Numbered from the stretch's first letter, positions 5,811-57,983 are shown. The stretch is 64,000 bases of DNA from an uncultured Pseudomonadales bacterium (GCA_964491115.1 CAZBEW010000003.1:23026-87025), one strand, 5' to 3'. Made by a program: numbers and translations. The notes: generated by a model not told the origin, from the letters alone.

Positions 5811-6701
5811 TTATTTACTTTTGGGTGATAGCTGAGGAATTGTTAACAGAAAGCGATTTGGGGAGTTGGATTCAAAAGAATCAAGTTTTATATTCGAGAT
5901 AAGCAAATTAGCTTTTGATATATAAGTGTGTAGTGTAAAAAATTCTTGCCATTTCTTTACTATACTTTCAAATTGAAGTGCTAAGCCTAAGTTTAGAATA
6001 AATATACCATTTTTATTGAGCGCGCCTTGAATGTCTTTGATAAATGCTCGATCAACAACTCCTTTATTAAAATTATAGCCATCAAACATATCTATAATTA
6101 TTAGATCGTAAGAACCGTTCACTAATTTCGGAAACTTTAAACCATCACCCTGTATTAAATTTATTTCAGAATCGTCTTTTAAAAAATACTTTTTTGCCCA
6201 TTCAATCATCGTTGGATTATATTCAATGACATCAACTTTTTTACCTATTTTATTTTCAACAAAATAACTAGCTAAAGAACAACCAGCTCCACCTAAAAGC
6301 AATATTTTTTGAGAAGATAAATTAGCGGTTAAATATTTAACTATGTCTAAAAAGAAATATTGCTTAGAATTTTTGTTAAAAAGCGGAGATCTACTACTAA
6401 AACCTGATGTTCCAGGTTGAGAAATTTCTCGAAAACTTTTATTTAAATCTCGTGGATAAATAAAATTACGCACATGATAAATATTTCCATCGATATTGCG
6501 TTTATCTAGTAAAAGAAAAAAACCTTCAGTAAAAATTTGATAAGCAATCCGTGCAAGGTAAAAAATGAGTATTCCAATAAGAATTAAGGCTATTGAGTGA
6601 CTAAAATACAAATCAGCAAATAAAATTAAAGATAAAAGAATACAAAAAAAAGTAAAAAATTCTTTTAAATTTAAACCATTTTTTAAATACATTTGCATCA
6701 A
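5811..6701 (-). CDS. Spermidine-synthase-like (aminopropyltransferase fold) protein with N-terminal TM segments
   Basis: 'LLLGGAGCSLASY', 'VDVIEYNPTMIEWAKKYF', 'INLIQGDG', 'YDLIIIDMFDG' fit the spermidine/spermine synthase Rossmann motifs; N-terminal hydrophobic helices. Confidence 0.45.
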   Translation of the reverse strand: MMQMYLKNGLNLKEFFTFFCILLSLILFADLYFSHSIALILIGILIFYLARIAYQIFTEGFFLLLDKRNIDGNIYHVRNFIYPRDLNKSFREISQPGTSGFSSRSPLFNKNSKQYFFLDIVKYLTANLSSQKILLLGGAGCSLASYFVENKIGKKVDVIEYNPTMIEWAKKYFLKDDSEINLIQGDGLKFPKLVNGSYDLIIIDMFDGYNFNKGVVDRAFIKDIQGALNKNGIFILNLGLALQFESIVKKWQEFFTLHTYISKANLLISNIKLDSFESNSPNRFLLTIPQLSPKSK

Positions 6702-6745
6702 ATTATATCATAAGTATAGGACCTCATTTTCTTTGCTATAATTCT

Positions 6746-7537
6746 TTGACTTATAAATTTAAGGTAGGTAATTCTATAGAACATAATATTTCTGATATGA
6801 AATTTTTAAATTATTTTAAAATAATTCTAAGCAAAATTGGATTGAGAGAACTTTTTATCGATTGGGGCTTGATTCATCCAGAATTACAACAAAGCCTTAT
6901 TAAGAGACAAGTTTCTAAAAAATTAATTAAAATTTACGACGGAGATGAGGGTCACGCAGTCAATTTTACTCAATACTCTTTAGGGTTTGGATATATTCAC
7001 TACGCTTTTATTCGCAATATAAAGGCTAAAAACATCCTATGCATCGGTTCTTGTAAAGGTTATATTCCAGCCATATTAGCTTTAGCTTGCAAAGATAATC
7101 AATTCGGAAGCGTTGACTTTGTTGATGCTGCTTACAGTCAATACAATAAAAAAGACAGTAAAAAACATTGGCGTGGTGTTGGCTTCTGGAAAGAAATTAA
7201 TCCAAAAAAACATTTTGCCAAAATTAAAGTAGATCAATATATTGATACTTATGTTATGACTTCGGAAGAATATGCAAAGAAATTTCCCAAGAAAAAATAC
7301 CAATATATTTACATCGACGGCGATCATTCTTATGAAGGAGTAAAGCTCGATTACAAATTATTTTGGCCCAAGCTTGAAAAAAATGGTTTTATGGTTTTTC
7401 ATGATGTGGTAGCTAAGGGATATTTAGATAAAGGCTTGTTTGGTGCTTGGAAATTTTGGCAAGAATTGAAAAATAAAAATAAAATCATTTTTCCTTTTCC
7501 CAAGGAGTCTGGTCTAGGAATTTTACAAAAGGATTAA
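6746..7537 (+). CDS. Class I SAM-dependent methyltransferase (TylF/CmcI, Methyltransf_24-like)
   Basis: 'ILCIGSCKGY' Gly-rich SAM loop; 'YIYIDGDHSYEGV...NGFMVFHD' matches the DGDHSY signature of the TylF/CmcI family. Confidence 0.55.
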   Translation: MTYKFKVGNSIEHNISDMKFLNYFKIILSKIGLRELFIDWGLIHPELQQSLIKRQVSKKLIKIYDGDEGHAVNFTQYSLGFGYIHYAFIRNIKAKNILCIGSCKGYIPAILALACKDNQFGSVDFVDAAYSQYNKKDSKKHWRGVGFWKEINPKKHFAKIKVDQYIDTYVMTSEEYAKKFPKKKYQYIYIDGDHSYEGVKLDYKLFWPKLEKNGFMVFHDVVAKGYLDKGLFGAWKFWQELKNKNKIIFPFPKESGLGILQKD

Positions 7538-7543
7538 AACAGC

Positions 7544-8791
7544 ATGTTTGGTGTAAAAACAAAAATACTAAACAAAATAAACAAAAATTTCAAAACTATT
7601 GATACTGATAAATCTATTACAAAAGTTGAGAGTTATATTTTAACGCGTTTGATAAAAAAAGAACTAAAAAAAGAGGCTGATATTAGTGACAATCAACAAG
7701 TAATAATAAAAAAAACTAATAATTTTGCTTCAAAAATCATTAAAAAAACTAGTGATTTTATGCCAAATAACTTGGGTAATTGGTCTATAAAAAACCCTCA
7801 CACACTTAGCGCTAAACTAGAACTAACCGCCATTAGAACAATAAAAAATCTTTTGGGTGCCAACAAAGAAATAATCGGGCACTTTAGTTCAGGAACAACT
7901 GAGGGTAATATTTATGCGACCTGGATAGCCCGCAATTACTTGCAAAAACAACTAAATTTAAAAGAATCACATAAAATTGTGATAATAAAAAGTTGTCTAG
8001 CCCACTATTCTATTGATAAAGCTGCAGACATAGTTGGTCTAAGACTCATAACAACTGGTATTCATCAATCCAAATATAATATTGATTTAAAATATTTAGA
8101 AAAAAATATTGCCTCTTTATATAATCAGGGAATTAGAGGGTTCATTATTCCATTAACTTTGGGTTATACGGTTACTGGCACAGATGATGAATATGTAAAA
8201 ATTGTTGATTTAGTCAAGAAGTTTGAAAAAGAAAAAGTTGATTGTAAATTCTTTTTATGGATTGATGCTGCATATTCTGGAATGCTAAAAGCTTATCTTG
8301 ACGATGATTTTCATCCTTTTGCTCAAAAAAGTATCCAATTAATCAGCACCGATTTACATAAAAGTTTAGCTATTCCTTATCCAGCTGGTATTTTGCTTTA
8401 CAGAAAAGAATTATTAGACTATATCAAAAAAACAATTCCATACATCGATCAATTTGATACTACGCTTTTAGGATCAAGGCCCGGCTCAAGCGTGTTGGCT
8501 AGTTGGTTTACTTTCATTAATCTAAGTAAAAAAGAGATTAGAAATTATTATAATAAGGCAAATGAAAGAAAAAATAACTTTTTAGAAAAGATTGTGAATG
8601 AAAATATTGGAGTACAAATAATTAACAATGCCACTAGTCTTCAGGCCTGCCTGATTAGCTTTAACAAGGCTTCCGATAAGATTTTGAACGATAAATATCA
8701 TTTAAAGAGTATTAACTATAAACTATTGTTTGGACAAAAAATTAAAACTGTTAAGCTATATAAACTATATTTCTTTATGAATCTGAAATAG
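7544..8791 (+). CDS. PLP-dependent group II decarboxylase (MfnA/tyrosine-glutamate decarboxylase-like)
   Basis: 'HFSSGTTEGNIYATWIAR' (GGTE-like) and 'STDLHKSLAIPYPAGILLYR' (S.D.HK PLP-lysine motif). Confidence 0.55.
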   Translation: MFGVKTKILNKINKNFKTIDTDKSITKVESYILTRLIKKELKKEADISDNQQVIIKKTNNFASKIIKKTSDFMPNNLGNWSIKNPHTLSAKLELTAIRTIKNLLGANKEIIGHFSSGTTEGNIYATWIARNYLQKQLNLKESHKIVIIKSCLAHYSIDKAADIVGLRLITTGIHQSKYNIDLKYLEKNIASLYNQGIRGFIIPLTLGYTVTGTDDEYVKIVDLVKKFEKEKVDCKFFLWIDAAYSGMLKAYLDDDFHPFAQKSIQLISTDLHKSLAIPYPAGILLYRKELLDYIKKTIPYIDQFDTTLLGSRPGSSVLASWFTFINLSKKEIRNYYNKANERKNNFLEKIVNENIGVQIINNATSLQACLISFNKASDKILNDKYHLKSINYKLLFGQKIKTVKLYKLYFFMNLK

Positions 8792-8794
8792 TAA

Positions 8795-9799
8795 ATGAAA
8801 AAAAGCCATCAAATAGATCTAAACACCATTAGTGAAAAAGAGTTTAAGAAAAAAATCAAAAAAAGAAGCTTTGAAAATACCAAGCTGATCGATTCTATCG
8901 AAAAGTATTTTATAGAAAAACGGGGCTATGTATTCAAAATGCCAAAACCAGAAGAATCGGTAATATTACTCTATTCTGGTGGTTTAGACTCGACAGTTGC
9001 CTGGTCTTATCTAATAGAAAAATACAAATTACATGTATATCCATTAGTATTTAAAAATAGAAACAGTTTTGGACAAAAAAAATCGATTTTTTATTTTAAA
9101 AAATATTTTAAAAAAAGATATGGTAATTATTATCACGAGCCCTTAGAAATATATAGCAATTTTTTTCCAGCAAAACTTTTCAAGCAAATGGCTGATCTAA
9201 AAAAGATTCATCCTGAAACCCTGTTGAACTACTTAATAGATAATCACAAATCTTTTAAATTTAATAATTTTTTTCCAGGATCAAATGCTTTAACTCCGAT
9301 TTCTGGCGTTATGTATCAAAAATATCTCGAAAACCAATATAATATAAAAATTAAAGCCATTTTTTTAGCAGTGCTGGCTGGAGATGGCACTGAAATTCCA
9401 TCGCAAAGTTTTACCTATTTGCGTAAGACTATGCTCTTTTTAGACGAATTTATTCAGACAGGAAATTTGCAAATTGCTTCAATTTTTTTTGAAAAGGAAA
9501 TAGGCTTGTTTTGTGAAAAAAAAGATATTATTAAACTAGGAGTTAAAACGCTTAAGATCCCCTTAGAAAAAACCTATAGTTGTTATGCAAAAAAATTATT
9601 TCACTGTAATGACTGCCTTGCCTGTTATTCAAGGCGTCTAGAGTTCAAGAAAGCAAATATTGTTGACAAAACTATGTACTATGATAAGCTTTTTATAGTA
9701 AAAAAAGTGGCTAAATTTAAGCATTTAGCGAAGTGTTATTTATTAAAAGGAAAAACTTTATGCAAGCATATCAAGCGCCAAGTTGTGAAAAAATCGTAA
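8795..9799 (+). CDS. PP-loop ATP pyrophosphatase, QueC-like (7-cyano-7-deazaguanine synthase family) with N-terminal extension
   Basis: PP-loop 'SGGLDST'; C-terminal Cys cluster 'SCYAKKLFHCNDCLACYSRR' resembles the QueC zinc-binding C..C..C..C motif. Confidence 0.45.
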   Translation: MKKSHQIDLNTISEKEFKKKIKKRSFENTKLIDSIEKYFIEKRGYVFKMPKPEESVILLYSGGLDSTVAWSYLIEKYKLHVYPLVFKNRNSFGQKKSIFYFKKYFKKRYGNYYHEPLEIYSNFFPAKLFKQMADLKKIHPETLLNYLIDNHKSFKFNNFFPGSNALTPISGVMYQKYLENQYNIKIKAIFLAVLAGDGTEIPSQSFTYLRKTMLFLDEFIQTGNLQIASIFFEKEIGLFCEKKDIIKLGVKTLKIPLEKTYSCYAKKLFHCNDCLACYSRRLEFKKANIVDKTMYYDKLFIVKKVAKFKHLAKCYLLKGKTLCKHIKRQVVKKS

Positions 9800-9871
9800 T
9801 TTCTGTTCTTTGTGGTGAAAATGAGACAATAGAATAGATAATCTTTTTTGCCAGTTTAATAGAGCCATATT

Positions 9872-10141
9872 ATGTTGCTTTATTGTCGTTCTGATTTTAT
9901 CTTCCAAAGAAAAATCGATAACACTCTTTGTTTATTAAAAAACAAAGACAAATATATTTATAGATTAAACGAAACAGCTAGTTTTTTGTGGCAAATACTG
10001 GAAAAAGAAGCCTCAAGTGAAGACCTAAGTCAAGCTTTAAGTAAAAAATACAATATCCCCTTGGCACAAGCATCCAACGATGTAGATAATTTTTTAACTT
10101 ATTGGCTGAAAGAAAAATTAATCAAAAAAGTTGTTCAATAA
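9872..10141 (+). CDS. PqqD-family protein (RiPP-recognition-element-like peptide chaperone)
   Basis: 89 aa; 'YIYRLNETASFLWQIL...EDLSQALSKKYNIP...ASNDVDNFLTYWLKEKLI' closely follows the PqqD consensus (Y.LN.t...iW.ll.g...eI...l...y.v....a..Dv..fl..L...gli). Confidence 0.5.
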   Translation: MLLYCRSDFIFQRKIDNTLCLLKNKDKYIYRLNETASFLWQILEKEASSEDLSQALSKKYNIPLAQASNDVDNFLTYWLKEKLIKKVVQ

Positions 10142-10555
10142 TCGCAATCTAAACAACAATCTTTGCCAGACGATAAATAATCGCTTATCAAAATAGCTAA
10201 GTTCACGATTTGTTTTTGATTTAGAAACAGCTAGGCCAACAAAGTCTTTTTTAGCAACTGGATCAAAATCAGCAACACTCAAATTATCACCCATGGTCAC
10301 CAACTTAATGCTAGGCTTGTTTTTTGTATATAGTTTTTTAATAACTCGGTGAATAATTAAATTTTTGTCAAAAGCTCGATAAAAACAAATTATGTCTCCA
10401 GTTTGAATTCTGGCAAACTGAGTTTTCTCCACCCAAACATTATCTCCGATTAAAAACAATGGCGCCATGCTATCACTTTTTATTTTTACTTGAAACATCG
10501 CGCCAATTGGTAAATTTAAAAATAATTTTGCAGAATTCAAAGTTTTTTTATTCAT
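10118..10555 (-). CDS. Signal peptidase I, ER/archaeal SipW-type (S26, Ser-His)
   Basis: Box B 'SDSMAPL', box C 'GDNVWV', box D 'IIHRV' (His in place of Lys), box E 'GDNLSVADFD'; translationally coupled with the ABC ATPase gene. Confidence 0.5.
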   Translation of the reverse strand: MNKKTLNSAKLFLNLPIGAMFQVKIKSDSMAPLFLIGDNVWVEKTQFARIQTGDIICFYRAFDKNLIIHRVIKKLYTKNKPSIKLVTMGDNLSVADFDPVAKKDFVGLAVSKSKTNRELSYFDKRLFIVWQRLLFRLRLLNNFFD

Positions 10556-26528: not shown

Positions 26529-26837
26529 CTAATTGCGAAAGGCTCGTTTAAAACGCCAATACAAATAAAACAATAATATCTGCCACAATAAAAAGAAAAA
26601 GAAAAAAGACCTATAAATCAATCTAAAAATTAATGAGCCGTCATAAAATAAGCCTAACAACCACCAAGCAAACAAAAGATAAAAAATAATGGCTAAAAAA
26701 GTTGGCAAGAACATTAAAGGAATGAAAACCCGATCTCGAACTAAATTTTGCATGCTTTGATATGGGTGCACAAACAAACCAAAAATAATTTGTCCTAATG
26801 AATAAAAAAATGAGTTAATGACTGAAATTTTATCCAT
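26529..26837 (-). CDS. Small polytopic membrane protein
   Basis: ORF plus hydropathy. Confidence 0.3.
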   Translation of the reverse strand: MDKISVINSFFYSLGQIIFGLFVHPYQSMQNLVRDRVFIPLMFLPTFLAIIFYLLFAWWLLGLFYDGSLIFRLIYRSFFFFFLLWQILLFYLYWRFKRAFRN

Positions 26838-27039
26838 TGCTTCCTTGATAAAAAAAACATTCCCACAAAACTGAAATAAAAAAAGCCAAAAGCATTAGTA
26901 TTTGCCAGGGATGAGAAGCCACCAGATTAGCCAAAGTGCTCAAGCGATCGGGTACAAATTTTTCTTTTTTGAGAGCACTTATTACTTTTGCTTCAGCTTT
27001 TAATTTTTCTAAAAATTCCCGCTGTTTGTTTTTTAACAT
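26830..27039 (-). CDS. Small single-TM protein immediately downstream of the ECF sigma (possible anti-sigma)
   Basis: 69 aa, charged N-terminus followed by one TM; position only. Confidence 0.3.
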   Translation of the reverse strand: MLKNKQREFLEKLKAEAKVISALKKEKFVPDRLSTLANLVASHPWQILMLLAFFISVLWECFFYQGSNG

Positions 27040-27051
27040 TTTTACTCTTAA

Positions 27052-27612
27052 TTAAGTATTTTGATCAATATCAGCCCACAATAAGCGAAATTCTTTCCTG
27101 GCTCTAAATAATTCTGATTCAATGGCTTTTTCTGTTCGCCCCCATTCCTTAGCTAATTCTTTAATTTTCTTTTCATCTACATATTTTTTTATTAATAATT
27201 CTCTTGATTGGCTAGTCATTTTCTTTAAAACTAACTTCACCATCTCTGCCGTTTCATGAGCGTCTTTGTATTCATGATCTAATAAAAACTCAGACAAGGG
27301 AATGATTTGAATGAACTTTTTTGCATAACGCTTGCGGTAAAAATCATTGATTTCATGACGCAAAATGCTTTGCATGTAAGTTAGTAGTGAACTATCTCCC
27401 TTAAACAGGGTGATACTGCGCAAACAATTAATAAAAGTTTCTTGAGTAATTTCTTCAGCTATTGATGGGCTGGGTAATTTTTGCAGGGCTAATTTATATA
27501 GCTTTTGATAATAATTTTTAAACCAATATTCAATTGCCAGCTCATGGCCATTTTTGATGGCTTCAACTAAAATTTGCTCGTTTGTAAATCCAACAAAACG
27601 TTTCATAATCAA
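27052..27612 (-). CDS. ECF-type sigma-70 family RNA polymerase sigma factor
   Basis: Region-2-like 'AEEITQETFINCLRSITLFKGDSSLLTYMQSILRHEINDFYRK'; region-4 HTH 'IKELAKEWGRTEKAIESELFRARKEF'. Confidence 0.6.
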   Translation of the reverse strand: MIMKRFVGFTNEQILVEAIKNGHELAIEYWFKNYYQKLYKLALQKLPSPSIAEEITQETFINCLRSITLFKGDSSLLTYMQSILRHEINDFYRKRYAKKFIQIIPLSEFLLDHEYKDAHETAEMVKLVLKKMTSQSRELLIKKYVDEKKIKELAKEWGRTEKAIESELFRARKEFRLLWADIDQNT

Positions 27613-27647
27613 ACTACCCTATCATATCAGAAAATTTTATTTTATAA

Positions 27648-28103
27648 TTGTTGTTGATGAAAAAGAAATTAAGGTCCTTCTTTCTAATTTTATTATTTCT
27701 CATCTCACATTTTTTAAGTTTAAAAACTTTAAATGTCAACTTTTTACCTCAAGTTAATGCACAAAGTCAAAGTCCGAGCCCAAGTCCAGGTGACGAAGAA
27801 GTAGAAATTGATTTAGGAAGTTATTTAAAATTAAGTGGTGGCCAAAAAGTCAGTGATGTTTTTCAAAAACCTAGCGATATGCTTAATTTAGTTATAAAAG
27901 TGGTTTTTGTTGTAGTTGGTTTACTTCTTTTTGCAATGGTGGTCATTGCTGGTTTGTCAATGATTGCTTCAGGCACAACTGATAGTAAAGATAAGGCTAA
28001 AGGCACGATGACTTCAGCTTTAATGGGGTTTATCGTTATTTTTGCTGCCTATTGGATTATGCAAATTATTCAAGTTCTAACTGGAACAGATATTGGCTTT
28101 TAA
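27648..28103 (+). CDS. VirB2/TrbC-like T4SS pilin family protein (paralog 1 of 7)
   Basis: Signal peptide, then two hydrophobic helices flanking a short 'SG.TDSKDKAKG' loop. Confidence 0.55.
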   Translation: MLLMKKKLRSFFLILLFLISHFLSLKTLNVNFLPQVNAQSQSPSPSPGDEEVEIDLGSYLKLSGGQKVSDVFQKPSDMLNLVIKVVFVVVGLLLFAMVVIAGLSMIASGTTDSKDKAKGTMTSALMGFIVIFAAYWIMQIIQVLTGTDIGF

Positions 28104-28132
28104 AAAGGAGCTTAGTATAATGAGGGTTTGAA

Positions 28133-28573
28133 ATGAAAAAAAATATCTTAATTTTACTCATAACAATTTTTTCTTTATTCCTAATTACAAACAAACCTGT
28201 TCTGGCCCAGAGCCCAGCGCCAATTGTGAGCGAAGATCCTTTTGGGGCTATCGAAGCTCCTCCGGGAGTGGACAAGTTTAATCAACAAGCTGGAGCAAGC
28301 GGCATTGGTCTTATTATTTTTTTCTCCAACTTAATTAAATTTCTCGCTGTTATTGCTGGTTTATGGACAATGTTAAACTTTATTTCTGCTGGTTTTACGT
28401 ATATCACCTCATCTGATTCAGGATCTATCAGTAAAATTGGTACAAAACTAACGCTAAGCGTAGTTGGCTTGGCCATAATTGTCGCTTCTTACACCATAGC
28501 AGCCGTTCTTGGATTAATACTCTTTGGAGATGCTACTTTTATTATCAATCCAAAAATACCAAGTCCTATTTAA
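28133..28573 (+). CDS. VirB2/TrbC-like pilin (paralog 2)
   Basis: Signal peptide 'ILLITIFSLFLITNKPVLAQ'; two TM hairpin around 'ISAGFTYITSSDSGSISKIGTKL'. Confidence 0.55.
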   Translation: MKKNILILLITIFSLFLITNKPVLAQSPAPIVSEDPFGAIEAPPGVDKFNQQAGASGIGLIIFFSNLIKFLAVIAGLWTMLNFISAGFTYITSSDSGSISKIGTKLTLSVVGLAIIVASYTIAAVLGLILFGDATFIINPKIPSPI

Positions 28574-28592
28574 TTAATAATAATTAACAATT

Positions 28593-29030
28593 ATGACAAA
28601 AATCACCAAACTCATAGCTGACGTAGATATTGGCTCCATCCAACCTGTTACTGATGTGCGTCAACCCGCAAATTTGCAAGAAACCACAGTTTTATCTACT
28701 CTGGAAACCTGGATCAGCGACATTATTGGCGTGATCACCATTTTAGCCACCTTATTCTTTATTGTTTATGCCTTTGTAGCTGCCTTTAATTGGATTACAG
28801 CTGCGGGAGATAAAAGTAAAATTGAACAAGCTAGAAATCGTTTGGTAATGAGCACGCTTGGCTTAATTCTCATTGTCGCTACCCATGCGATTATTGGTTT
28901 AATCGGAGGCATCATTGGTTTAGAACTATTAAACCCAGGAAACATGATTCGACAAATTCTTCCAAACGCAGGTTCGCTAACACCAACCATAATGCCGCCA
29001 GTAATTACAATTTCGCCAGCTCCTTTTTAA
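28593..29030 (+). CDS. VirB2/TrbC-like pilin (paralog 3)
   Basis: 'NWITAAGDKSKIEQARNRLVMSTLGLILIV' motif between two TM segments. Confidence 0.6.
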   Translation: MTKITKLIADVDIGSIQPVTDVRQPANLQETTVLSTLETWISDIIGVITILATLFFIVYAFVAAFNWITAAGDKSKIEQARNRLVMSTLGLILIVATHAIIGLIGGIIGLELLNPGNMIRQILPNAGSLTPTIMPPVITISPAPF

Positions 29031-29039
29031 TAAAAAATT

Positions 29040-29474
29040 ATGAAAAAAAATAAACAATTAACCTTGAGCCAAAAACTAATTGCCAGCTTTAATTTGTTTC
29101 TAATTAGTTTTTTTTACAGCGCAAAATCCGTTTCTGCTCAAATTACTAATCCTGTGACAGGCAATTTGGGAGTTAGCGATCCAGACGCTCCAAGTGGTAG
29201 TAGATTTATTCAATATGTTGTTTATTTGTGGCGAGCTTCTGTTACCCTCGGCGCTTTAGCAGTCATCGTTTTTTTTCTACTAGGAGCTTTTACTTGGATT
29301 ACTGCTGGAGGAGATAAAAACAAAATTGAACAAGCCCGCAATCAAATTATGAACTCTATTGTTGGCTTGGTATTATTAGTTAGCTCTTTTGTTTTACTTA
29401 GTTTTCTAAGTAAATTATTATTTGCTGGAGAATTTGATATATTTCAATTAAGTCTTCCAGGAACAAACAATTAG
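29040..29474 (+). CDS. VirB2/TrbC-like pilin (paralog 4)
   Basis: 'TWITAGGDKNKIEQARNQIMNSIVGLVLLV'. Confidence 0.6.
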   Translation: MKKNKQLTLSQKLIASFNLFLISFFYSAKSVSAQITNPVTGNLGVSDPDAPSGSRFIQYVVYLWRASVTLGALAVIVFFLLGAFTWITAGGDKNKIEQARNQIMNSIVGLVLLVSSFVLLSFLSKLLFAGEFDIFQLSLPGTNN

Positions 29475-29492
29475 CGTTAAAAAGCAAAAAAT

Positions 29493-29852
29493 ATGAATAA
29501 ACTTATACTTACAGCACAAGCCAGTGAAGGAACCGTTCTAAATATAGCTGAAGAAGCTCAAAGACAAGGTCTACTCGGTGCCGAAAACGCCAATACTGAA
29601 GATGGGGGTTTTGGTCTTTGGCTCAGCAATCTTTTGAAAGTAGCCATGACTCTTGGGGCCGTGGTTTGTTTAGCCTTTATCATCTTGGGAGCGGTTCAAT
29701 GGATTACTTCAGGTGGCGATAAAAGCAAAATTGAAGAAGCACGTAATAAAATTACTAATGCTGTTATTGGTCTGATTGTTTTAGCAGCCACTATGGCTCT
29801 TTTTAATCTGGTGGCTAGTTTTCTTGGTATTGATGTAATAAGAATCATCTAG
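29493..29852 (+). CDS. VirB2/TrbC-like pilin (paralog 5)
   Basis: 'QWITSGGDKSKIEEARNKITNAVIGLIVLAA'. Confidence 0.6.
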   Translation: MNKLILTAQASEGTVLNIAEEAQRQGLLGAENANTEDGGFGLWLSNLLKVAMTLGAVVCLAFIILGAVQWITSGGDKSKIEEARNKITNAVIGLIVLAATMALFNLVASFLGIDVIRII

Positions 29853-29857
29853 ATTTT

Positions 29858-29903
29858 TTTGCTAAATACTAATAAACTTGATATAATAAAAGTAGAAAAG
29901 TAT
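29858..29903 (+). promoter_or_regulatory. Candidate promoter (TTGCTA ... TATAAT) and AAAGGAG ribosome-binding site for pilin paralog 6
   Basis: TATAAT at about 29883-29888; TTGCTA 19 nt upstream (spacing slightly long); AAAGGAG at 29897-29903. Confidence 0.25.
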
Positions 29904-29916
29904 AAAAGGAGAAATT

Positions 29917-30321
29917 ATGAAATCTATAAAAAAAATTGCTTTAGGCTCCGCTAGCGCGTTGGGCAGCATGTTTTTAACAGCAAAAACTGTCTTGGCGGCA
30001 TCAATCTCAGATATTGAGGTCAGTCCAGGAACTGGTTATGCCACTGATTTTGGCAAGATGTTTAGCTCTGTCTTAAACATTGTGATGTTAATTGCTGCAG
30101 TTTTAGTATTTGCCTTCCTTATTTTCGGTGGTATTCAATGGATTACTTCCGGTGGTGATAAAAGCAAAGCTGAAGAGGCACGTAATAAAATTACATCAGC
30201 CGTTATTGGTTTAATCATTGTTGCTGCTTCTTACGCGGTAATTAACCTAGTGGTTAACTTCCTCGGATTTTCTGACTTCAACAGTGTTTTCAAAAACGTA
30301 ACCCCTATTAGCGGTAATTAA
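29917..30321 (+). CDS. VirB2/TrbC-like pilin (paralog 6)
   Basis: 'QWITSGGDKSKAEEARNKITSAVIGLIIVAA'; AAAGGAG RBS 7 nt upstream. Confidence 0.6.
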   Translation: MKSIKKIALGSASALGSMFLTAKTVLAASISDIEVSPGTGYATDFGKMFSSVLNIVMLIAAVLVFAFLIFGGIQWITSGGDKSKAEEARNKITSAVIGLIIVAASYAVINLVVNFLGFSDFNSVFKNVTPISGN

Positions 30322-30331
30322 ATAAATCACT

Positions 30332-30378
30332 ATCCCCTCTCTTTTCATGAAAACTTGGAATGAGAGGGGATTATTGTT
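30332..30378 (+). terminator. Hairpin (ATCCCCTCTC ... GAGAGGGGAT) followed by a T-rich run
   Basis: 10-bp perfect inverted repeat at 30332-30341 / 30362-30371 after the paralog-6 stop, then 'tattgttat'. Confidence 0.4.
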
Positions 30379-30390
30379 ATAATTAATATC

Positions 30391-30801
30391 ATGAATAGAG
30401 CAATCTCCCTATTTCCCATTGTTAAACAGGTCCAGGCCCAGACTAAAGAGTGGCAAACTATTAGTGAATACTGTGTTATTAATGATGTCGCTACCGTCCA
30501 AGGTGTGGGTTGTTTATTAGCTAATGTTTTGTCAGTTGCCCTGCGCTTACTTGGAATTACCGGCTTTATCATGATTGTTTATGCAGCTTTTAACCTATTG
30601 ATGTCGGCAGGAAATAGTCAAAAAATGGAAGAATCAAAAAAGACCATCACTTTTGCAATTATTGGAATTATTTTAGCTTTATCAGCCTTTATTATTATTA
30701 ATTTAATTGCAAATTTCACTGGAGTTAGTCTGGTGAAGGAATTTACCATCCCCAGTTCAGAAAAAAATTGGGTTTCACCTACGCCCACTCCCATTCCCTA
30801 A
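30391..30801 (+). CDS. VirB2/TrbC-like pilin (paralog 7, divergent)
   Basis: 'NLLMSAGNSQKMEESKKTITFAIIGIILALSAF' motif; true start uncertain. Confidence 0.5.
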   Translation: MNRAISLFPIVKQVQAQTKEWQTISEYCVINDVATVQGVGCLLANVLSVALRLLGITGFIMIVYAAFNLLMSAGNSQKMEESKKTITFAIIGIILALSAFIIINLIANFTGVSLVKEFTIPSSEKNWVSPTPTPIP

Positions 30802-43341: not shown

Positions 43342-44859
43342 TTATTTAGAAACAGCAATTAAAGACATTTTTAGGGCAGAAAGATCCTGGGCGAGGTCTT
43401 CATCGACTAAAAGTTCTTGTTCGATTTTTTTTACCGCGTGGATAACGCTGGTGTGGTCGCGTCCCCCAAACCACTGACCAATTTCTTCCAAAGAACTATT
43501 CAGCTCTTGTCTTAACAGGTACATGGCCACGTGTCGCGCCCTGACCAAGTGTTTGTTGCGACGTCCACCTTTAATTGCGCTTTGCTTGAGGTGATAGTGG
43601 TTACCGACGCTTTGAATAATGTCTTGAGGTTTAACGCGCAGGGTTGTTTGGTGGTTTTGTCTAATTTCTTTTTTTAAAATGATGTCAATTAATTCGCTGT
43701 TAATTTCAGCTCCTTGTAATTCGACAGCGCTGCGGATTTTTTGAATAATTCCCTCAATTCGTCTTGCGCTATCAACTTGAGAAGCAATTTTTTGCGCCAA
43801 ATGGTTGGGAATGTTAATGTGACCCGTTTCTGCTTTAAGCAATAAAATCGCGGTGCGTAATTCCAGAGTGGGCTGCTGGATGTCAATTATTAGTCCTGCC
43901 TCGAAGCGCGAGCGAATTCTGTCTTCTAGTAAACTTATTTCATGTGGCGGAAGATCAGAGGTTAGAACAACCTGAGAGTTGTTAGCAGTCAGTGCGTTAA
44001 ATGTGTGAAAAAACTCTTCTTGAACACTTTTTTTACCAGCAATAAATTGAATGTCGTCTAATAAAAGCAGATCGGCTTTTCGATATTTATTGCGAAACTG
44101 AGCAGAGTTTTTATTTTGTATTGAGCGAATGATTTCGTTAGTGAATTGTTCTCCAGTGCAAAAAACAATGTTGGAATCTGGGTTGTTTTTTAACACATAA
44201 TTGGCAATCGCGTGCATGAGGTGGGTTTTACCAACGCCTACGCCACCATACAAAAAAAGAGGATTGTAACTCGTCCCTAAACTGCTAGCAACCTTGGTTG
44301 CCGCAGCGTGAGCCATCTGATTGCTTGGGTCGACGGCGAAGTTTTTAAAGGTATAATCTGTTTTTAAGCCAATTTGTTTAGCTGTTAAAATATACCTATC
44401 AACAGTGTTATTTTTAATATTTGAGTAAGAAAATAGTTCATCAACGGTGGGTGATAAAAGGTCTGGTCTGCTGCTTGTGTCGTCCATTACGCTTTCATTA
44501 CTTAGCGCTGTTTTTTTGTTTTTTTGAATTCTTTGGTCGGCTTGGGCGAAACCCTCGCGTCCTTGTTGTAGAGTTCGATTACCAACAATAAAATTAATTT
44601 CGATCGGTCGATTAACATATTTCTCCAAAGCAGTCTTAATTGGCAAATAAAGGTTAGACTTGAGGTTGGTTACGTGAAAAGCGGTCATGCAACTAATGGT
44701 GGCCTCGGCTTTTAAATCGTCGACAATTGTCAGTTGTACTAGGGGACTTGGCAAAATCCAGGTGTTGAAAATCGCAGGACTGAGACTGTTTTCTAGATCA
44801 TTTTTAGCCATTTGCCAAATTTGTTCTACGGTTTGAACATCATAGTTTTGTTCAGACAT
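43342..44859 (-). CDS. dnaA: Chromosomal replication initiator protein DnaA
   Basis: Walker A 'GGVGVGKTHLMHAIANY', 'LLLDDIQFIAGK', C-terminal 'HTSVIHAVKKIE' DnaA-box-binding helix. Confidence 0.9.
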   Translation of the reverse strand: MSEQNYDVQTVEQIWQMAKNDLENSLSPAIFNTWILPSPLVQLTIVDDLKAEATISCMTAFHVTNLKSNLYLPIKTALEKYVNRPIEINFIVGNRTLQQGREGFAQADQRIQKNKKTALSNESVMDDTSSRPDLLSPTVDELFSYSNIKNNTVDRYILTAKQIGLKTDYTFKNFAVDPSNQMAHAAATKVASSLGTSYNPLFLYGGVGVGKTHLMHAIANYVLKNNPDSNIVFCTGEQFTNEIIRSIQNKNSAQFRNKYRKADLLLLDDIQFIAGKKSVQEEFFHTFNALTANNSQVVLTSDLPPHEISLLEDRIRSRFEAGLIIDIQQPTLELRTAILLLKAETGHINIPNHLAQKIASQVDSARRIEGIIQKIRSAVELQGAEINSELIDIILKKEIRQNHQTTLRVKPQDIIQSVGNHYHLKQSAIKGGRRNKHLVRARHVAMYLLRQELNSSLEEIGQWFGGRDHTSVIHAVKKIEQELLVDEDLAQDLSALKMSLIAVSK

Positions 44860-44963: not shown

Positions 44964-47216
44964 TTATTCTGAGCCTTTGTAGTCGTCAATAGAGTAGCCG
45001 TATAGCTGTCTGGTTTTTGGTTGAGCTTCTTGTTCAAGCTCTTGAGTGTTGTCAAAATTATTGTTTAAATCGCTGTTTTGGCTACTTGCTGTCTCGTTTT
45101 GAATGTTTGTTTCTTCGTTTTGTCCACTCGCCACCTCATTTTCAGCAACTGTTTGTTGTTTTTGTTCAGCATCAAAAATATTTTTGATTTGCGGTAGAGT
45201 GTTGCTTTGACGTAATCTGATTTCTGCTTGACGCTCGGCATTTTCTAGTAAATCAGTCTCTATTTTAACCTTTTCTCCTTGCCAGGGAATTTTTTCAGGT
45301 CTGCTAAATTCTCCAACTTTTTCCTCGCTTTTCTCAATCGTGCTTTCTTGTTCTAGTCGACGACGTCTAAGCTCACGCTCTGCCTCAGCCTGTTTCTTTT
45401 TGGCTAAAATTTCTTCAGGATCTGTTGTGATTGCTCTATCTTCTTTTTCTGACGCAATAACTCGTAGTGCCACGTGATTTTGGCCAGCAAAAAAGATGCC
45501 TTCGCCAACATCTGAAGTCACCAACAGCTGTCTTTCTCCCTCAGACAAATAAAAAGTTTGCGCTAAAAGAGGAATCGAGGAGGTTGATTGCTTCATTAGA
45601 AACTGAATAGAAGAGTTAGAAACGATTGCTCGCCCATAATCGTTGCGCAAAAAGTCTTCAACGTCTTGAGTAATGGTGGTAATACCAAGGAAATATTTAC
45701 GAGCGCGTTTAACCATCGAATATACAAAAGCAGAGCTATCTTGATGCATCATGAAGTACCAGGCTTCATCAATCACTAAAATTCGTTTTTTAAGATCTTT
45801 TTTCACTTTTGTCCAAATGAAATCAAGAATCACGTACATGGCAATTGGTCGCATTTCTTCTTCCATTTCTCTGACGCTAAAAACAGTGAAGGGGGAGCGA
45901 ATGTCAATGTTTGAAGCTTTATCAAAAATTCCCCGAAAAGACCCCGTAATAAATTTTTCTAAACGTGCTGACAAATCATCGCTTTCATCTTGTTCCATGC
46001 CGACTAAGGCCTTGTATAGGTCTTCCATTAGGGGTGGAGTATTAGTTTGAGTGTTGGGATCGGGAGTAATGCCCTTGGCTTTATAGCTGGCAATGATTGC
46101 TCGATCAAGAATTGCTTCTTGTTGAGGAGTCATTTCTCCCAACATCACTTTTAGCAGACCATGCAAGGACAAAATCTTTTGACCAAGCTCATTTTCTCCC
46201 TCTTCGTACAAATTAGATAGGTCAAATGGATTAATTTTTGCCTTAGAACCAAAAGTAAAATTAATATATTCTCCGCCAACCATATTACATAGCTCTTCAT
46301 ATTCATGTTCTGGATCTAGCACGATAATTTCCGTGTCAAACATGAGCTGGCGCAAAATTTCTAGTTTTACTGTGTAGGATTTTCCTGCACCAGATTTAGC
46401 AAAAATAACCATGTTGGCATTTTCCATTTTAAAACGATCAAAAATTACCAAAGAATCGTTGTGTTCGTTGATGCCATAAACAATGCCAGTTTCCATGGTT
46501 AATTCTGAGGAAGTAAAGGGAAAGGTTGTGGCTAACGAAGTGGTGTCCATGTTTCTAGTGATTAACAGGCGATCGGTGCCCATTGGCAAGGTGTTTTTGA
46601 AGCCCTCATCCATTTGTAAAGCGGTTTTTTTTGAAACAATTAATAAAGAGCCTAAAGAAGATTGAATGGCTTTGGTGATTTTGTCTAATTGCTCTCTAGT
46701 TTCGCTTTTAATAGTGACGTATAAGCTAAATTGGAAAAATCTTTCCGAGCCAGCCGCCAGTTGCTCTCGCATGACTCGCGCGTCATTTAATTTAATTTCA
46801 GTGTTAATATTACTAATTTTACCGTTGCGGAGATCTGAGGTTATTTCTGCCTCCATTTCAGTGATTTTTCTTTTCAAATCATCTAAAATTTTGCTGGTGT
46901 CAGACGGAAAAACAAACATCGAAATATTAGCTTGAGTGGGAAAATTAATTAGCGGTGACAACCAGTTGGCTGGGACAGTACGCGGATAACCAGCCACAAA
47001 AATAGTTCTTGTATATGTTGAATTAATTTTTTGATAGGTGAAATCCACCTCTATTGCTTCTGGGGCAATAATATCTTGAATAGTCACTAGACCACGAGAA
47101 AAATCTTTCAATCTTTCTTGAGTATATTGCTCTGCATCAATCTTTTTTTTCTCAACAGGATCAGTGACTGTTTCTTTCTTTTTAAAAAATGGTAGGTTTA
47201 GGTTTAGTAATGACAT
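44964..47216 (-). CDS. VirB4/TrbE/CagE-family T4SS ATPase with a 130-aa acidic/Gln-rich C-terminal tail
   Basis: Walker A 'AKSGAGKSYTVK', Walker B 'ILVIDEAWYF'; N-terminal 'GYPRTVPANWLSPL' VirB4 N-domain. Confidence 0.8.
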   Translation of the reverse strand: MSLLNLNLPFFKKKETVTDPVEKKKIDAEQYTQERLKDFSRGLVTIQDIIAPEAIEVDFTYQKINSTYTRTIFVAGYPRTVPANWLSPLINFPTQANISMFVFPSDTSKILDDLKRKITEMEAEITSDLRNGKISNINTEIKLNDARVMREQLAAGSERFFQFSLYVTIKSETREQLDKITKAIQSSLGSLLIVSKKTALQMDEGFKNTLPMGTDRLLITRNMDTTSLATTFPFTSSELTMETGIVYGINEHNDSLVIFDRFKMENANMVIFAKSGAGKSYTVKLEILRQLMFDTEIIVLDPEHEYEELCNMVGGEYINFTFGSKAKINPFDLSNLYEEGENELGQKILSLHGLLKVMLGEMTPQQEAILDRAIIASYKAKGITPDPNTQTNTPPLMEDLYKALVGMEQDESDDLSARLEKFITGSFRGIFDKASNIDIRSPFTVFSVREMEEEMRPIAMYVILDFIWTKVKKDLKKRILVIDEAWYFMMHQDSSAFVYSMVKRARKYFLGITTITQDVEDFLRNDYGRAIVSNSSIQFLMKQSTSSIPLLAQTFYLSEGERQLLVTSDVGEGIFFAGQNHVALRVIASEKEDRAITTDPEEILAKKKQAEAERELRRRRLEQESTIEKSEEKVGEFSRPEKIPWQGEKVKIETDLLENAERQAEIRLRQSNTLPQIKNIFDAEQKQQTVAENEVASGQNEETNIQNETASSQNSDLNNNFDNTQELEQEAQPKTRQLYGYSIDDYKGSE

Positions 47217-48329
47217 TTAAAGTTCTACAGGTGCAGGTGAGTTATTTGCTTTCTTGCTAATTGTTGTTGGGTTGGGGTTTGCTTCTTCTCCATAATCGAG
47301 GTGTTTCTGAACGGCAGGTGCCTGTCCTGTATCTCGAATCATGGGATTTTGCTGATTAATTTGTGTTTGAAGTGAGGGAATTTCTTCTCTAAAGCTAGAG
47401 GAGGAGCTTGTTTGCCAATGGGGGGCTACCGGACTTGTTGGTCTAGTGGCGGGAGCAATTTCCTCTTGCTTGGGTCTTGGCACTGGCGACTCAACTTTTT
47501 CTTGTCTGCGCTCTGATGCTGGCGCTTTGATTTCTTCTTGGTCAGGCGCTGTAGTTGCTGTTGTCGCATCGTCATCTCTTAACGCCCCACTTTCTGTATA
47601 GAGTGTTTGGCGGAAATTCTGGCGTATTCGTTGTGGATCTTGTTCTTCAGCAAGGCTGGCTCTCACGATTGGTGTAGTGTAACTGTCGCTATTAGCCACC
47701 TCCTGACCCTCCGTGGACTCTGGATTGTAATTGACGTAAAAATTTTGAATGATTTCTTGAGTGTCTAGTTGTCTGGCAAATAAGCCCACTCGGTTGAATT
47801 GGGCAATGAGATGATCTCTTCTTGGATCGAGAATAGCGCTAGCTTTTTCAACTAAAACGGTTTTTTCGTGGTTGTTAATATCAAACTTGGTTTTACCGGG
47901 TAAGACACTTTCTGCGGTGTATAAACCCATTTCAGCTGCGTTAGTAGGTACAACAACAAAAAACTTTTTTTCTAAAACATTGCGCTCGTAGATTAAGTTG
48001 GCTACAAATTCTCTATATTCAGCAATTAATTGAGACTTAGCTCTTGATTTACTTTCCTTAATTTGATTGTCTAACAATCTTAAATAGCGACTAGCATCCT
48101 TGACGTTCGACTGAATATTAATTTGAATTGGAAAATTTAAAGAATTAAGCAACGCTCCATAAGTGTACATGATGGCGTCTTGTTCTTGTTCCGCCAAGAG
48201 ACTAAAGTTCATGGTGCCAATTTGCATAATTATTGACACCACGCCATCTTTAAGAATCACCATATCATTGGTGATGTCATAAACATCTAGAAATTCCTGC
48301 GTGGTAGAGTTGATACTGTTGTCACTCAT
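47217..48329 (-). CDS. Hypothetical T4SS-associated protein (globular N-domain plus Pro/Thr/Glu-rich tail); abuts the VirB4 start
   Basis: Position only; no recognisable motif. Confidence 0.35.
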   Translation of the reverse strand: MSDNSINSTTQEFLDVYDITNDMVILKDGVVSIIMQIGTMNFSLLAEQEQDAIMYTYGALLNSLNFPIQINIQSNVKDASRYLRLLDNQIKESKSRAKSQLIAEYREFVANLIYERNVLEKKFFVVVPTNAAEMGLYTAESVLPGKTKFDINNHEKTVLVEKASAILDPRRDHLIAQFNRVGLFARQLDTQEIIQNFYVNYNPESTEGQEVANSDSYTTPIVRASLAEEQDPQRIRQNFRQTLYTESGALRDDDATTATTAPDQEEIKAPASERRQEKVESPVPRPKQEEIAPATRPTSPVAPHWQTSSSSSFREEIPSLQTQINQQNPMIRDTGQAPAVQKHLDYGEEANPNPTTISKKANNSPAPVEL

Positions 48330-48380
48330 AAAGCTATTTCAGTTTACTAGATTTTAAGTGCTAATAAAAGAGCTTTGTCC

Positions 48381-49397
48381 CTAATTAGCAATAATTTTAA
48401 TTTCTGGTACTATCCTTCCGGTTAATCTAATAGAGATGGGGTCAAAGTTTAAATCCTTTGCTTCGGTTTTAATGAGGTATTCGCCGTTAGGAAGGGCAGT
48501 TTTAATGGCAAATTCACCCTCAATGTTGCTTTTGCTAATGCGTAAAGCCTGGTCGTCATTGCTGGCAAAAACTTCAATTAAGGCATTGCTTACTGGCTCG
48601 TTTTCTTGATTAAAAACAAGACCAAACAGTTGGTTTGCTAACATGCTCTCTCTTTCCGACTGCTTTTCTTCATCAGCTTGATCTTCTTTGTTGGTATTTT
48701 TTAGAGGGTAGTTTTCTTGGACCTTTTTTGCCTCGGTTTTTTCCTGTATTTCTTGTTTAGCTGGCAATGGATCGCTTTCTTGGGCGTATTGTACTTGTTG
48801 TTGTTCCTGAATTTGCTCAAGGCTTTTAATTTTTCTCACTCTTGTTTTTAAATGAGGTTTGTCCACCCTAATATCTTTTTGAACAGAAATATTTTCTGCC
48901 TTAATTTCTACTTGACTAAAATTGGCCAGCAAATCTTCTGCTCTTTGATTGTAATGTAAATCCCATTGGTCAAGATCTTCGTTGGCACTAGGAACGCTTT
49001 TTAGATATTCTTGAACGCGCTGTTTTCTAGCTGGCGAGTAATTTACCTCTGGAGTAATATCTAAATTTTGATTTTGATCCGCTTGGTAGTTAAAAAAATC
49101 GGGGACCTTGGGTGCTTTTTTCCAAAAAAATTTAGTTGGTTTCCATATGTTTTTGAAAAAAGTTACGATCCAAAAATCTAAGGGTCTTTCTTCAACCGGA
49201 ACAAAAGCAATCATGACAGCCAAAATGATAATAAAAATAAACAGTGGCCACTTTACTATGGCAATTAAGTTACTTTTGAAAACAATAAAAGCAATGATAG
49301 CGCCAGCAGCCAATTCGCCAAACTGCTTTAGAGTCATGCTGCCGATTAGGTGAAACTTGTAGCCAGTTATATCTTGGGGAATAGAGTGTTGTATCAT
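48381..49397 (-). CDS. PrgI/VirB3-like two-TM protein fused to a C-terminal carboxypeptidase-regulatory-like beta-sandwich domain
   Basis: N-terminal 'SIPQDITGYKFHLIGSMTLKQFGELAAGAIIAFIVF ... PLDFWIVTFFKNIWKP' matches the PrgI-family pattern; C-terminal 'NALIEVFASNDDQALRISKSNIEGEFAIKTALPNGEYLIKTEAKDLNFDP'. Confidence 0.45.
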   Translation of the reverse strand: MIQHSIPQDITGYKFHLIGSMTLKQFGELAAGAIIAFIVFKSNLIAIVKWPLFIFIIILAVMIAFVPVEERPLDFWIVTFFKNIWKPTKFFWKKAPKVPDFFNYQADQNQNLDITPEVNYSPARKQRVQEYLKSVPSANEDLDQWDLHYNQRAEDLLANFSQVEIKAENISVQKDIRVDKPHLKTRVRKIKSLEQIQEQQQVQYAQESDPLPAKQEIQEKTEAKKVQENYPLKNTNKEDQADEEKQSERESMLANQLFGLVFNQENEPVSNALIEVFASNDDQALRISKSNIEGEFAIKTALPNGEYLIKTEAKDLNFDPISIRLTGRIVPEIKIIAN

Positions 49398-49822
49398 AGG
49401 GACAGCTTATTTGACTGATATTCAAAGCGACTACTGTCGATATCGCCAAATCCTTTTTCATTTAACCATATTTCGAGCGCTTTTTCTGTAGCATTTAGAC
49501 CCATGTCCGATTTGACAACAAAACCGCCGGTTTTATAAGAAAATTCGATGGTGAAATTTGACGTGCTTACTGGAGTGATGTTTTTTAATTCTGTGATCTG
49601 ACGATGTTGCTCGGTAACTTCTTCACTAAAATCTGGCTGGTCTGTGGGATAACCATGATCATGAATGTTTTTAATTTTTTCGAACTCTGGAGTGGGCGAC
49701 GCTTGTTGTGGCACGTTTCCTTCCTGACCACCTTGCTGAGTTACTCTTTGCAATACTATTATGGCAATTAGAATAAGTATTAATAAGATGATAATAAGCA
49801 GGGTTTTTTTCTTTTTTTTCAT
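49394..49822 (-). CDS. Small N-terminally anchored protein
   Basis: 'LLIIILLILILIAIIVL' TM; overlaps neighbouring genes by 4 nt (operon). Confidence 0.35.
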   Translation of the reverse strand: MKKKKKTLLIIILLILILIAIIVLQRVTQQGGQEGNVPQQASPTPEFEKIKNIHDHGYPTDQPDFSEEVTEQHRQITELKNITPVSTSNFTIEFSYKTGGFVVKSDMGLNATEKALEIWLNEKGFGDIDSSRFEYQSNKLSL

Positions 49823-49826
49823 ATTT

Positions 49827-55815: not shown

Positions 55816-55849
55816 TTTAAAGTGTCAGGTTTTTTTGGATATTTGTGTT

Positions 55850-56106: not shown

Positions 56107-56137
56107 ATCAAAACAATTTTCTGTATAAAATTAACCA

Positions 56138-57885: not shown

Positions 57886-57983
57886 ACTAGGTATATTCTA
57901 ATTGATAATTGTGTTTTGTGTAAAGTGAAGTTTATTATTTTAACTCTTGACAAGATATCGCAAAGTATTTAAAACTATCACAA

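Follow-up and report, generated by a model that had tools for sequence, protein, structure and literature searches.

What is a row of seven small membrane-protein genes doing beside a sigma factor gene, and is it a recently expanded, variable family or a fixed set of parts? This question is raised by the 64,000-nt stretch of DNA analyzed here (GCA_964491115.1 CAZBEW010000003.1:23026-87025, hereafter the window), in which positions 27648-30801 carry a tandem array of genes for putative VirB2/TrbC-like pilins, next to a gene for an extracytoplasmic function (ECF) sigma factor. The best explanation, which we hold to be probable rather than secure, is an old, order-conserved array of seven VirB2-like subunits of a monoderm-type type IV secretion system (T4SS), genetically coupled to the sigma operon. 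It is based on the family membership and architecture of the encoded proteins, on their positional orthology, on the conservation of promoter and terminator elements, and on the linkage of array and sigma operon across species.

The initial annotation described seven consecutive genes of 119-151 aa in this region, and the call of open reading frames (ORFs) agreed with it: seven tandem ORFs of these lengths were found at 27648-30801 on the plus strand, separated by spacers of 9-69 nt. These genes, together with two signals belonging to gene 6, are as follows (PF18895 is the T4SS_pilin family of Pfam).

27657-28103, + strand: pilin gene 1, 148 aa from ATG 27657 (longest ORF from TTG 27648); PF18895 score 31.3 bits
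28133-28573, + strand: pilin gene 2, 146 aa, a divergent member that keeps the two-helix architecture; PF18895 score 15.1 bits, below the cut-off
28593-29030, + strand: pilin gene 3, 145 aa, without a clear signal peptide, loop GDKSKIEQARNR; PF18895 score 30.6 bits
29040-29474, + strand: pilin gene 4, 144 aa, with a signal-peptide-like N-region; PF18895 score 34.0 bits
29493-29852, + strand: pilin gene 5, 119 aa, with an acidic N-tail and without a signal peptide; PF18895 score 42.4 bits
29873-29887, + strand: extended -10 promoter of gene 6, AAACTTGATATAAT, a 10/12 sigma-70-like site with TG
29917-30321, + strand: pilin gene 6, 134 aa, with an AAGGAG Shine-Dalgarno (SD) sequence, candidate major subunit; PF18895 score 36.6 bits
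30332-30371, + strand: terminator-like stem-loop 3' of gene 6, an inverted repeat
30391-30801, + strand: pilin gene 7, 136 aa, with its own TATAAT at 30378-30383, 7 nt before the ATG; PF18895 score 30.5 bits

The start of gene 1 is most likely ATG 27657 rather than TTG 27648, because the latter overlaps a TATAAT box at 27643-27648. As expected from the initial annotation, two long hydrophobic helices flank a short polar loop in all seven proteins by hydropathy, and this loop carries a net charge of +1 or +2. In the AlphaFold 2 (AF2) model of gene 6, a helical hairpin was observed at 45-77/82-115 with pLDDT >90. The two-helix hairpin of about 70 residues typical of PF18895 was thus found in the seven proteins by hydropathy and loop charge, and in gene 6 also by structure prediction. 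Two other features had been attributed to the whole array, a signal peptide and a common W-I-T-[SA]-G-G-D-K-S-K loop, and each applies to a part of it. The strict motif WIT[SA]GGDKSKIE[EQ]ARN was limited to genes 3-6, the loops of genes 1, 2, and 7 having diverged. A signal-peptide-like hydrophobic N-region was clear in genes 1, 2, and 4, Ala/Gly-rich in gene 6, and absent from genes 3, 5, and 7, according to a hydropathy heuristic, which is not a cleavage predictor. By the same heuristic, an A-x-A or AQ sequence followed the hydrophobic N-region in genes 1, 2, 4, and 6 and was absent from 3, 5, and 7; the N-region of gene 5 has a net charge of -4.

The near-identical tracts shared by several paralogs had suggested recent duplication or gene conversion, with surface or antigenic variation, or multiple major and minor subunits, as possible roles. 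Loci for the comparison of the pilins were retrieved via orthologues of the sigma factor, and all of the pilins were compared across the loci named L001, L003, L004, L006, and L008. The best match of each window gene lay at the same array position (7/7) in L001, L003, and L008, and L004 and L006 were collinear with the window, with two extra genes each, at positions 3 and 8. Each orthologue outscored the closest paralog in the window; the one exception was gene 5 in the most distant comparisons. The sigma factors of the compared genomes are only 56-79% identical, yet this positional orthology was 1:1. Position 6 was the most conserved (75, 65, and 54% identity to the orthologues in L001, L003, and L008, respectively) and position 1 the least (56, 39, and 38%), positions 2 (68, 53, and 41%) and 7 (69, 64, and 49%) being intermediate. 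Length was also conserved per position: the product of position 5 was the shortest in the related arrays, with 119, 113, 112, and 111 aa in the window, L001, L003, and L008. Since best matches are positional and orthologues are more alike than paralogs, recent duplication was refuted, and these comparisons indicate that the array is old and order-conserved. Stable positional orthology therefore favors the second of the two proposed roles, non-redundant major and minor subunits, and disfavors antigenic variation by turnover of copy number or recombination. Additionally, more distant relatives (L004, L006, L030, L032, L038, L040, and others) were seen to carry arrays of 9-10 genes, collinear with the seven of the window plus insertions, and a further large PF18895 protein of 428 aa is encoded near the array in L004.

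If the genes instead encoded alternative major pilins able to replace one another, with duplication, recombination, or gene conversion generating the diversity for antigenic or host-range variation, the divergence of the paralogs outside the loop and the range of array sizes across species, from 4 to 10, would be expected. The strict positional orthology at such sigma divergence and the conserved position-specific lengths, with position 5 always the shortest, argue against this reading, which we regard as very improbable. Further points in its favor come from genes 5 and 6. The tract at 29701-29755 had been aligned with 30139-30193, where only 19 of the 55 positions are identical; after a shift of one base (30140-30194) the identity rose to 50/55 (91%). 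A repeat finder returned a 63-nt loop-coding segment in four copies, 65-81% identical to the copy taken as reference, and also matched 158 nt of gene 5 to gene 6 at 73%. Furthermore, the core of genes 5 and 6 was more similar within genomes than between them (identity 0.735 vs. 0.683; p ~1e-4 by permutation of the pairing). Nevertheless, the tract showed an excess of shared codons of +0.083, and the non-core codons of the two genes, taken as a control, one of +0.063. Because these two excesses are nearly equal, most of the codon sharing within genomes was ascribed to genome-specific codon usage, and gene conversion is not claimed as the cause of the likeness. The loop motif behind the tract is conserved in about 60 species, and the 55-nt likeness reflects mainly purifying selection on this motif; conversion between genes 5 and 6 would be at most a minor contribution and is unproven. 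The same derived loop residue was also noticed in the gene-5 and gene-6 orthologues of single genomes (K to Q in L031, I to L in L022, T to S in L008 and L075). Such paired changes, which would also be in keeping with variation, could come from occasional short-tract conversion or from the co-evolution of contacting loops.

Preference for fixed subunits over interchangeable ones is also in line with the expression signals, which set gene 6 apart. The extended -10 given above was found, with the same sequence, 5' of the gene-6 orthologue in ~13 of the 15 loci examined, followed by a leader of ~25-45 nt with an AAGGAG-type SD. The spacer between genes 6 and 7 folds at -23.6 kcal/mol, vs. -6.5 kcal/mol or weaker for the other foldable spacers of the array, and hairpins with a GC stem plus a T-run were present at the equivalent place 3' of gene 6 in 10 other loci. 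Overall, the -10, the SD, and the terminator were kept in about 11-14 of the 15 loci, and the combination of the three is peculiar to gene 6 within the array, a further point against a set of equivalent major pilins. By these signals, gene 6 is a predicted monocistronic unit, conserved, with an extended -10, a strong SD, and an intrinsic terminator. Because of this architecture and of its highest conservation, gene 6 is likely to encode the bulk (major) subunit. Nor does the array as a whole form a single simple operon: a promoter scan placed the three best sigma-70-like sites of the region just 5' of genes 2, 6, and 7, and several genes have their own TATAAT, predicted to serve leaderless or near-leaderless transcription. 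That of gene 2 lies at 28116-28121, 11 nt before the ATG, and that of gene 1, at 27643-27648, is 8 nt before the ATG.

The next question was whether the family identity holds. Searched with the PF18895 model, whose gathering threshold is 26.6 bits, six of the seven genes (1 and 3-7) passed with 30.5-42.4 bits, and gene 2 failed with its 15.1 bits; the orthologues of the array genes also bear a precomputed PF18895 assignment. With the TrbC model (PF04956), the sole match was that of gene 3, with 15.8 bits against a cut-off of 27.9. Gene 6 matched NCBIfam NF045849, the Mbov_0395 family of pilin-like conjugal transfer proteins, over residues 41-115 (E 6.6e-8), with a score of 32.1 bits, under the family cut-off of 40. 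The sole match of gene 6 in a plasmid database was a Pontibacillus plasmid protein, 39% identical and with the same Mbov_0395 annotation. Designation of the array genes as VirB2/TrbC-like pilin paralogs is thus supported by sequence at the family level, by PF18895 and by the sub-threshold Mbov_0395 match.

The system that such pilins could serve was looked for in the same window. Its closest matches were metagenome-assembled genomes labeled Candidatus Pacebacteria, Paceibacterota, or Woesebacteria, and a placement in the Patescibacteria (Minisyncoccota) was therefore adopted. With a GC content of about 0.28-0.40 and the genes dnaA, dnaN, rnpA, yidC, recF, valS, and uppS, the window is, on these matches, a segment of a Microgenomatia ('Pacebacteria') chromosome near dnaA. 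The T4SS-like core that had been placed 14 kb from the array was confirmed there, with a VirB4-like ATPase 14.2 kb away, and two further PF18895 proteins were found beyond it.

44964-53153, - strand: T4SS core operon, with VirB4-like (44964-47216), TrsD-like (47217-48329), and PrgI/VirB3-like (48381-49397) genes, a 142-aa gene, and a 1108-aa gene
61749-62330, - strand: PF18895 protein, 193 aa; 38.9 bits
62334-63281, - strand: PF18895 protein, 315 aa; 29.1 bits

The core was identified by the Pfam families P-loop_TraG/AAA_10 and PrgI, the NCBIfam TrsD match being below the cut-off, and it adjoins dnaA (43342-44859). The proteins of 193 and 315 aa have long Cys-rich N-terminal ectodomains and a C-terminal PF18895 hairpin, and could act as tip or adhesin-type pilins in the system to which the array belongs. 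Five large proteins at 44964-53153 and 53224-61719 (1108, 863, 579, 295, and 942 aa) had no Pfam match, and four of them had no NCBIfam match either. At the start of the T4SS operon and of its divergent neighbor (53153/53224), a TATAAT was noticed 6-8 nt before the ATG.

Whether these proteins build a filament is a separate matter, and several observations weigh against it. The alignment by hhalign of the gene-6 family with eight bona fide VirB2/TrbC proteins from MPF_T plasmids was weak (probability 15%, E 0.0017) and collinear over the leader, the AQ region, and TM1, the first transmembrane (TM) helix, only. The pilin-family profile found nothing among PDB sequences but a chance match to heme A synthase (E 0.84), and the fold match of the pilin model in the structure search was non-specific. 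Filament formation by PF18895 proteins is a prediction, and the Patescibacteria pilus is termed 'putative' or a 'possibility' in the literature (PMC12102498). Patescibacteria VirB4 is related to the MPF_FATA class (PMC12102498), and MPF_FATA (Gram-positive-type) systems are generally without pili (PMC12102498, PMC12857230). Among curated proteins, the closest relatives, named 'pilin-like', come from Mycoplasma integrative and conjugative elements (ICEs) and from the Pontibacillus plasmid, which are monoderm or wall-less systems. On these grounds, the PF18895 proteins could be membrane parts of a monoderm T4SS channel or of another complex, called pilins by analogy. This is judged unlikely: the proteins match the VirB2/TraA architecture (leader, here putative and limited to genes 1, 2, 4, and 6, then TM helix, basic loop, and second TM helix), and seven distinct subunits plus two ectodomain pilins are more easily understood as a heteromeric fiber with tip or adaptor subunits. 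Moreover, in Southlakia epibionticum, the only patescibacterium tested genetically, a homologous array of six genes is essential alongside the T4SS for epibiotic growth (Wang et al., 2023, PMC10633639; PMC12857230). The link of the array genes to experimentally defined pilins remains one of architecture plus weak sequence evidence, and a pilus-like fiber is the reading retained below in conditional terms.

The other half of the locus is the operon that diverges from gene 1.

27052-27606, - strand: ECF-type sigma factor, 184 aa (186 aa from the alternative start TTG 27612), divergent from gene 1
26830-27039, - strand: 69-aa single-TM protein, candidate anti-sigma factor, directly downstream of the sigma gene
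26529-26837, - strand: 102-aa orphan protein with three TM segments (3-TM), third gene of the sigma operon, with an 8-nt overlap with the 69-aa gene

The divergent ECF sigma gene announced by the initial annotation was corroborated. Pfam recognized Sigma70_r2 (44.8 bits) and Sigma70_r4_2 (36.6 bits), without regions 1 or 3, and the sigma70-ECF model TIGR02937 gave 71.6 bits, over its cut-off of 42.9; the protein thus has the sigma-2 plus sigma-4 composition and the model match of the ECF (group 4) factors. Among the sub-threshold matches was the BldN-family model TIGR02952, with 58 bits. The most likely start is ATG 27606, because the orthologues are of 184 aa. These orthologues are 41-99% identical, and the next nearest proteins are unrelated sigma factors with at most 31%. 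As for the small candidate anti-sigma factor that had been proposed beside the sigma gene, a single-TM ORF of 69 aa does follow it, and its N-terminal FLxKLxxEA helix and TM segment were conserved across six aligned genomes. Weighing against an anti-sigma function, the searches revealed no Pfam or NCBIfam match, no homology to an anti-sigma domain, and no HxxxCxxC motif. The architecture fits that of a short membrane anti-sigma factor, and by this analogy the single-pass protein is likely to be one.

The third protein belongs to no known family according to Pfam, NCBIfam, a word search of 5.8 billion proteins, and a hidden Markov model (HMM) search of 1.84 billion proteins; its own family comprised 56 clusters among the 1.84 billion representatives searched with the HMM. 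Its AF2 model was of high quality (pLDDT 93) and had no fold match in the PDB. The family is characterized by the motif GLLxHPYQTMQxLVR...WQxxLLYLxxRF, in which P25 is invariant, HPY(Q) is nearly so, and the WQxxLLYLxxRF part is C-terminal. One member seems to be fused to, or miscalled with, a NUDIX gene. Both the sigma and the 3-TM families are lineage-restricted.

Is the neighborhood of this operon and the array more than a coincidence of the window? A scan of one genome per species of GTDB for the sigma factor yielded 80 loci, and gene presence was counted over 88 loci. Of the 65 loci whose sequence reaches 5 kb or more upstream of the sigma gene, 63 have a divergent, directly adjacent pilin array; 60 of these 63 arrays have at least five genes, with a modal size of seven. 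The 3-TM gene was found in 84/88 loci, and the 69-aa gene, with a local HMM, in at least 73/88. The control set consisted of 41 loci in which the sequence extends at least 9 kb to either side: the array was adjacent in 39/41 and the third gene was present in 41/41, and in these same loci RecF was within 10 kb in 26/41 and ValS in 17/41, and UppS lay on one side in 19 and on the other in 17. Of the exceptions, L062 (sigma at 9998-10525) still has an array, of 8 genes, separated from the sigma gene by a single inserted gene of 282 aa. The only true one is L087 (sigma at 9734-10537), which keeps the sigma, small-TM, and 3-TM genes and has no pilin gene within 10 kb upstream. Since the module survives the rearrangement of its flanks, functional coupling of the sigma operon and the array is indicated, and the operon probably regulates or monitors the array.

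The manner of this coupling is less clear, and the promoters give no support to direct transcription of the array by the linked sigma factor. The -10 arrangement of gene 1 is common to 61 loci, and its TATAAT was perfect, that is, of the housekeeping type, in 55 of them. Across loci, a TAnAAT 5-13 nt before an in-frame ATG was present in 31% of 593 pilin ORFs (1.3% in the control frame). Among 673 ORFs of at least 200 aa that do not encode pilins, 24% show the same layout (1.2% in the control frame). Leaderless-type promoters thus characterize the lineage as a whole, and the idea that leaderless TATAAT promoters are a special property of the array was rejected. No ECF-type or otherwise distinctive motif emerged when the 61 upstream regions were aligned on the -10. 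In a 5-mer comparison of these regions with 92 other leaderless promoters, no enrichment survived the correction for multiple testing and no shared -35 was seen, so that no conserved ECF-type target promoter was recognized in the 61 intergenic regions between sigma and pilin genes. Because the TATAAT of gene 1 is ordinary and no sigma-specific motif was found, direct transcription of the array by this sigma factor is unsupported.

These results fit a sigma factor that is linked to the array and does not transcribe it, either an envelope-stress-type sensor of the pilin load in the membrane or of T4SS assembly, driving other genes, or a mere partner in a shared bidirectional control region. The retention of the sigma operon in L087 without an adjacent array, and the -10 boxes owned by many pilin genes, would agree with this. 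We consider it somewhat unlikely, because cis-regulatory coupling is the simplest explanation for a divergent adjacency kept in 63/65 species while the flanks were rearranged, and because a TATAAT-like -10 would be compatible with recognition by this sigma factor. A regulatory or monitoring role of the operon toward the array is the reading that we keep.

Taken together, the best-supported model would be that of a fixed-subunit heteromeric fiber under a dedicated, membrane-tethered sigma module. In the membrane, each pilin would form two TM helices, TM1 and TM2, joined by a short, basic loop on the cytoplasmic side, genes 1, 2, 4, and 6 using a cleavable signal peptide and genes 3, 5, and 7 translocating a short N-tail. 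Extraction of the pilins and their assembly into a channel or pilus-like structure would presumably fall to the VirB4/TrsD/VirB3 machine; gene 6 would supply the bulk subunit, and the other six genes conserved minor or specialized ones. The sigma/69-aa/3-TM module might serve as a switch of pilin or T4SS expression that reacts to signals from the membrane or the surface, or might monitor the pool of pilins in the membrane. In its full form, with the three-component module as a dedicated switch or sensor for a Patescibacteria T4SS pilus, gene 6 as the shaft of the fiber, and the other paralogs as fixed minor subunits, this proposal is a plausible one that we advance tentatively. If true, it would be the first proposal to offer a regulatory handle on the T4SS of Patescibacteria and a model of its subunits. 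Meanwhile, conserved gene order, a major-subunit-like gene, and a linked sigma operon turn a vague idea of 'variation' into testable hypotheses.

Sigma-BldN/RsbN controls the chaplin and rodlin genes in Streptomyces, and CnrH/CnrY/CnrX is another system of an ECF sigma factor and a single-pass anti-sigma factor. The operon described here is like them in having a sigma-2 plus sigma-4 factor followed by a co-oriented gene, whose small single-TM product has a short cytoplasmic N-terminus, and a third membrane component, and, like the modules of the sigma-BldN/RsbN type, it adjoins a multigene family of small hydrophobic surface proteins. It differs from them in that the 69-aa protein lacks a recognizable anti-sigma domain and a zinc motif, no ECF-type promoter motif was found, and the third protein is of an orphan family without a fold match in the PDB.

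As a kind of feature, the array is already published for the Patescibacteria (PMC12102498, PMC10633639) and catalogued in hundreds of assemblies: 441 VirB2 arrays of 2-11 genes, with a mean identity of 25%, were reported in 383 assemblies, especially of Microgenomatia and Saccharimonadia (Quinonero-Coronel et al., 2025, PMC12102498). Such an array is defined there as at least two VirB2/PF18895 genes in tandem or one gene apart, together with a VirB4 of the Patescibacteria clade (PMC12102498). The seven tandem genes agree with this definition if the VirB4 of the window, VirB4-like by family match, is counted. The likeness to the published arrays (PMC12102498, PMC10633639) extends to PF18895, to tandem genes that are divergent but structurally similar, and to a relaxase-less, monoderm-type VirB4/TrsD/PrgI T4SS near dnaA. 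Unlike them, the array of the window lies 14 kb from virB4 and not inside the cluster. For the published arrays, host adaptation or variation was suggested as the role (PMC12102498), whereas the orthology observed here favors fixed, non-redundant subunits. Positional orthology and the gene-6 monocistron are unreported in PMC12102498 and PMC10633639; the word 'sigma' occurs 0 times in PMC12102498, and the searched literature links no sigma factor to VirB2 arrays. These two features and the near-invariant linkage of the sigma, 69-aa, and 3-TM genes with the array therefore go beyond the literature searched.

With VirB2, TrbC, and TraA of the Agrobacterium T-pilus and the F-pilus, the array genes share small size, a two-helix hairpin with a short basic loop, and a system with a VirB4-type ATPase, and four of them (1, 2, 4, and 6) have a putative leader. 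They differ from these diderm proteins in the PF04956 score (at most 15.8 bits), in the monoderm host, and in the presence of seven paralogs instead of one, and VirB1, VirB5, and a cyclase were not identified here. The Mbov_0395 family (NF045849), from Mycoplasma ICEs and Firmicutes plasmids, is the best curated match outside Pfam and is tied to conjugation systems of the MPF_FATA type in monoderm or wall-less hosts; unlike the seven-gene chromosomal array, the Pontibacillus plasmid homologue is a single match in its record. Several tandem VirB2-family genes for one T4SS are also known from Anaplasma and Bartonella (cited in PMC12102498). Those virB2 paralogs are thought to act in antigenic variation or host range, whereas the order-conserved orthologues of the window argue for fixed roles.

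Finally, two observations were made at the other end of the window. A 145-aa Peptidase_S24/S26-like protein is encoded at 10118-10555 on the minus strand, adjoining an ABC-2 transporter; S26-type peptidases process or cyclize TrbC pilins in some conjugation systems. Positions 1-10000 form a low-GC block (0.28-0.31 vs. ~0.36 elsewhere) with a gene set of the surface-glycan type, including a Wzy_C O-antigen ligase-like protein, a 1039-aa PQQ/beta-propeller protein, a GT1 glycosyltransferase, methyltransferases, a PLP decarboxylase, and a QueC-like protein. This block may be a variable glycosylation island.

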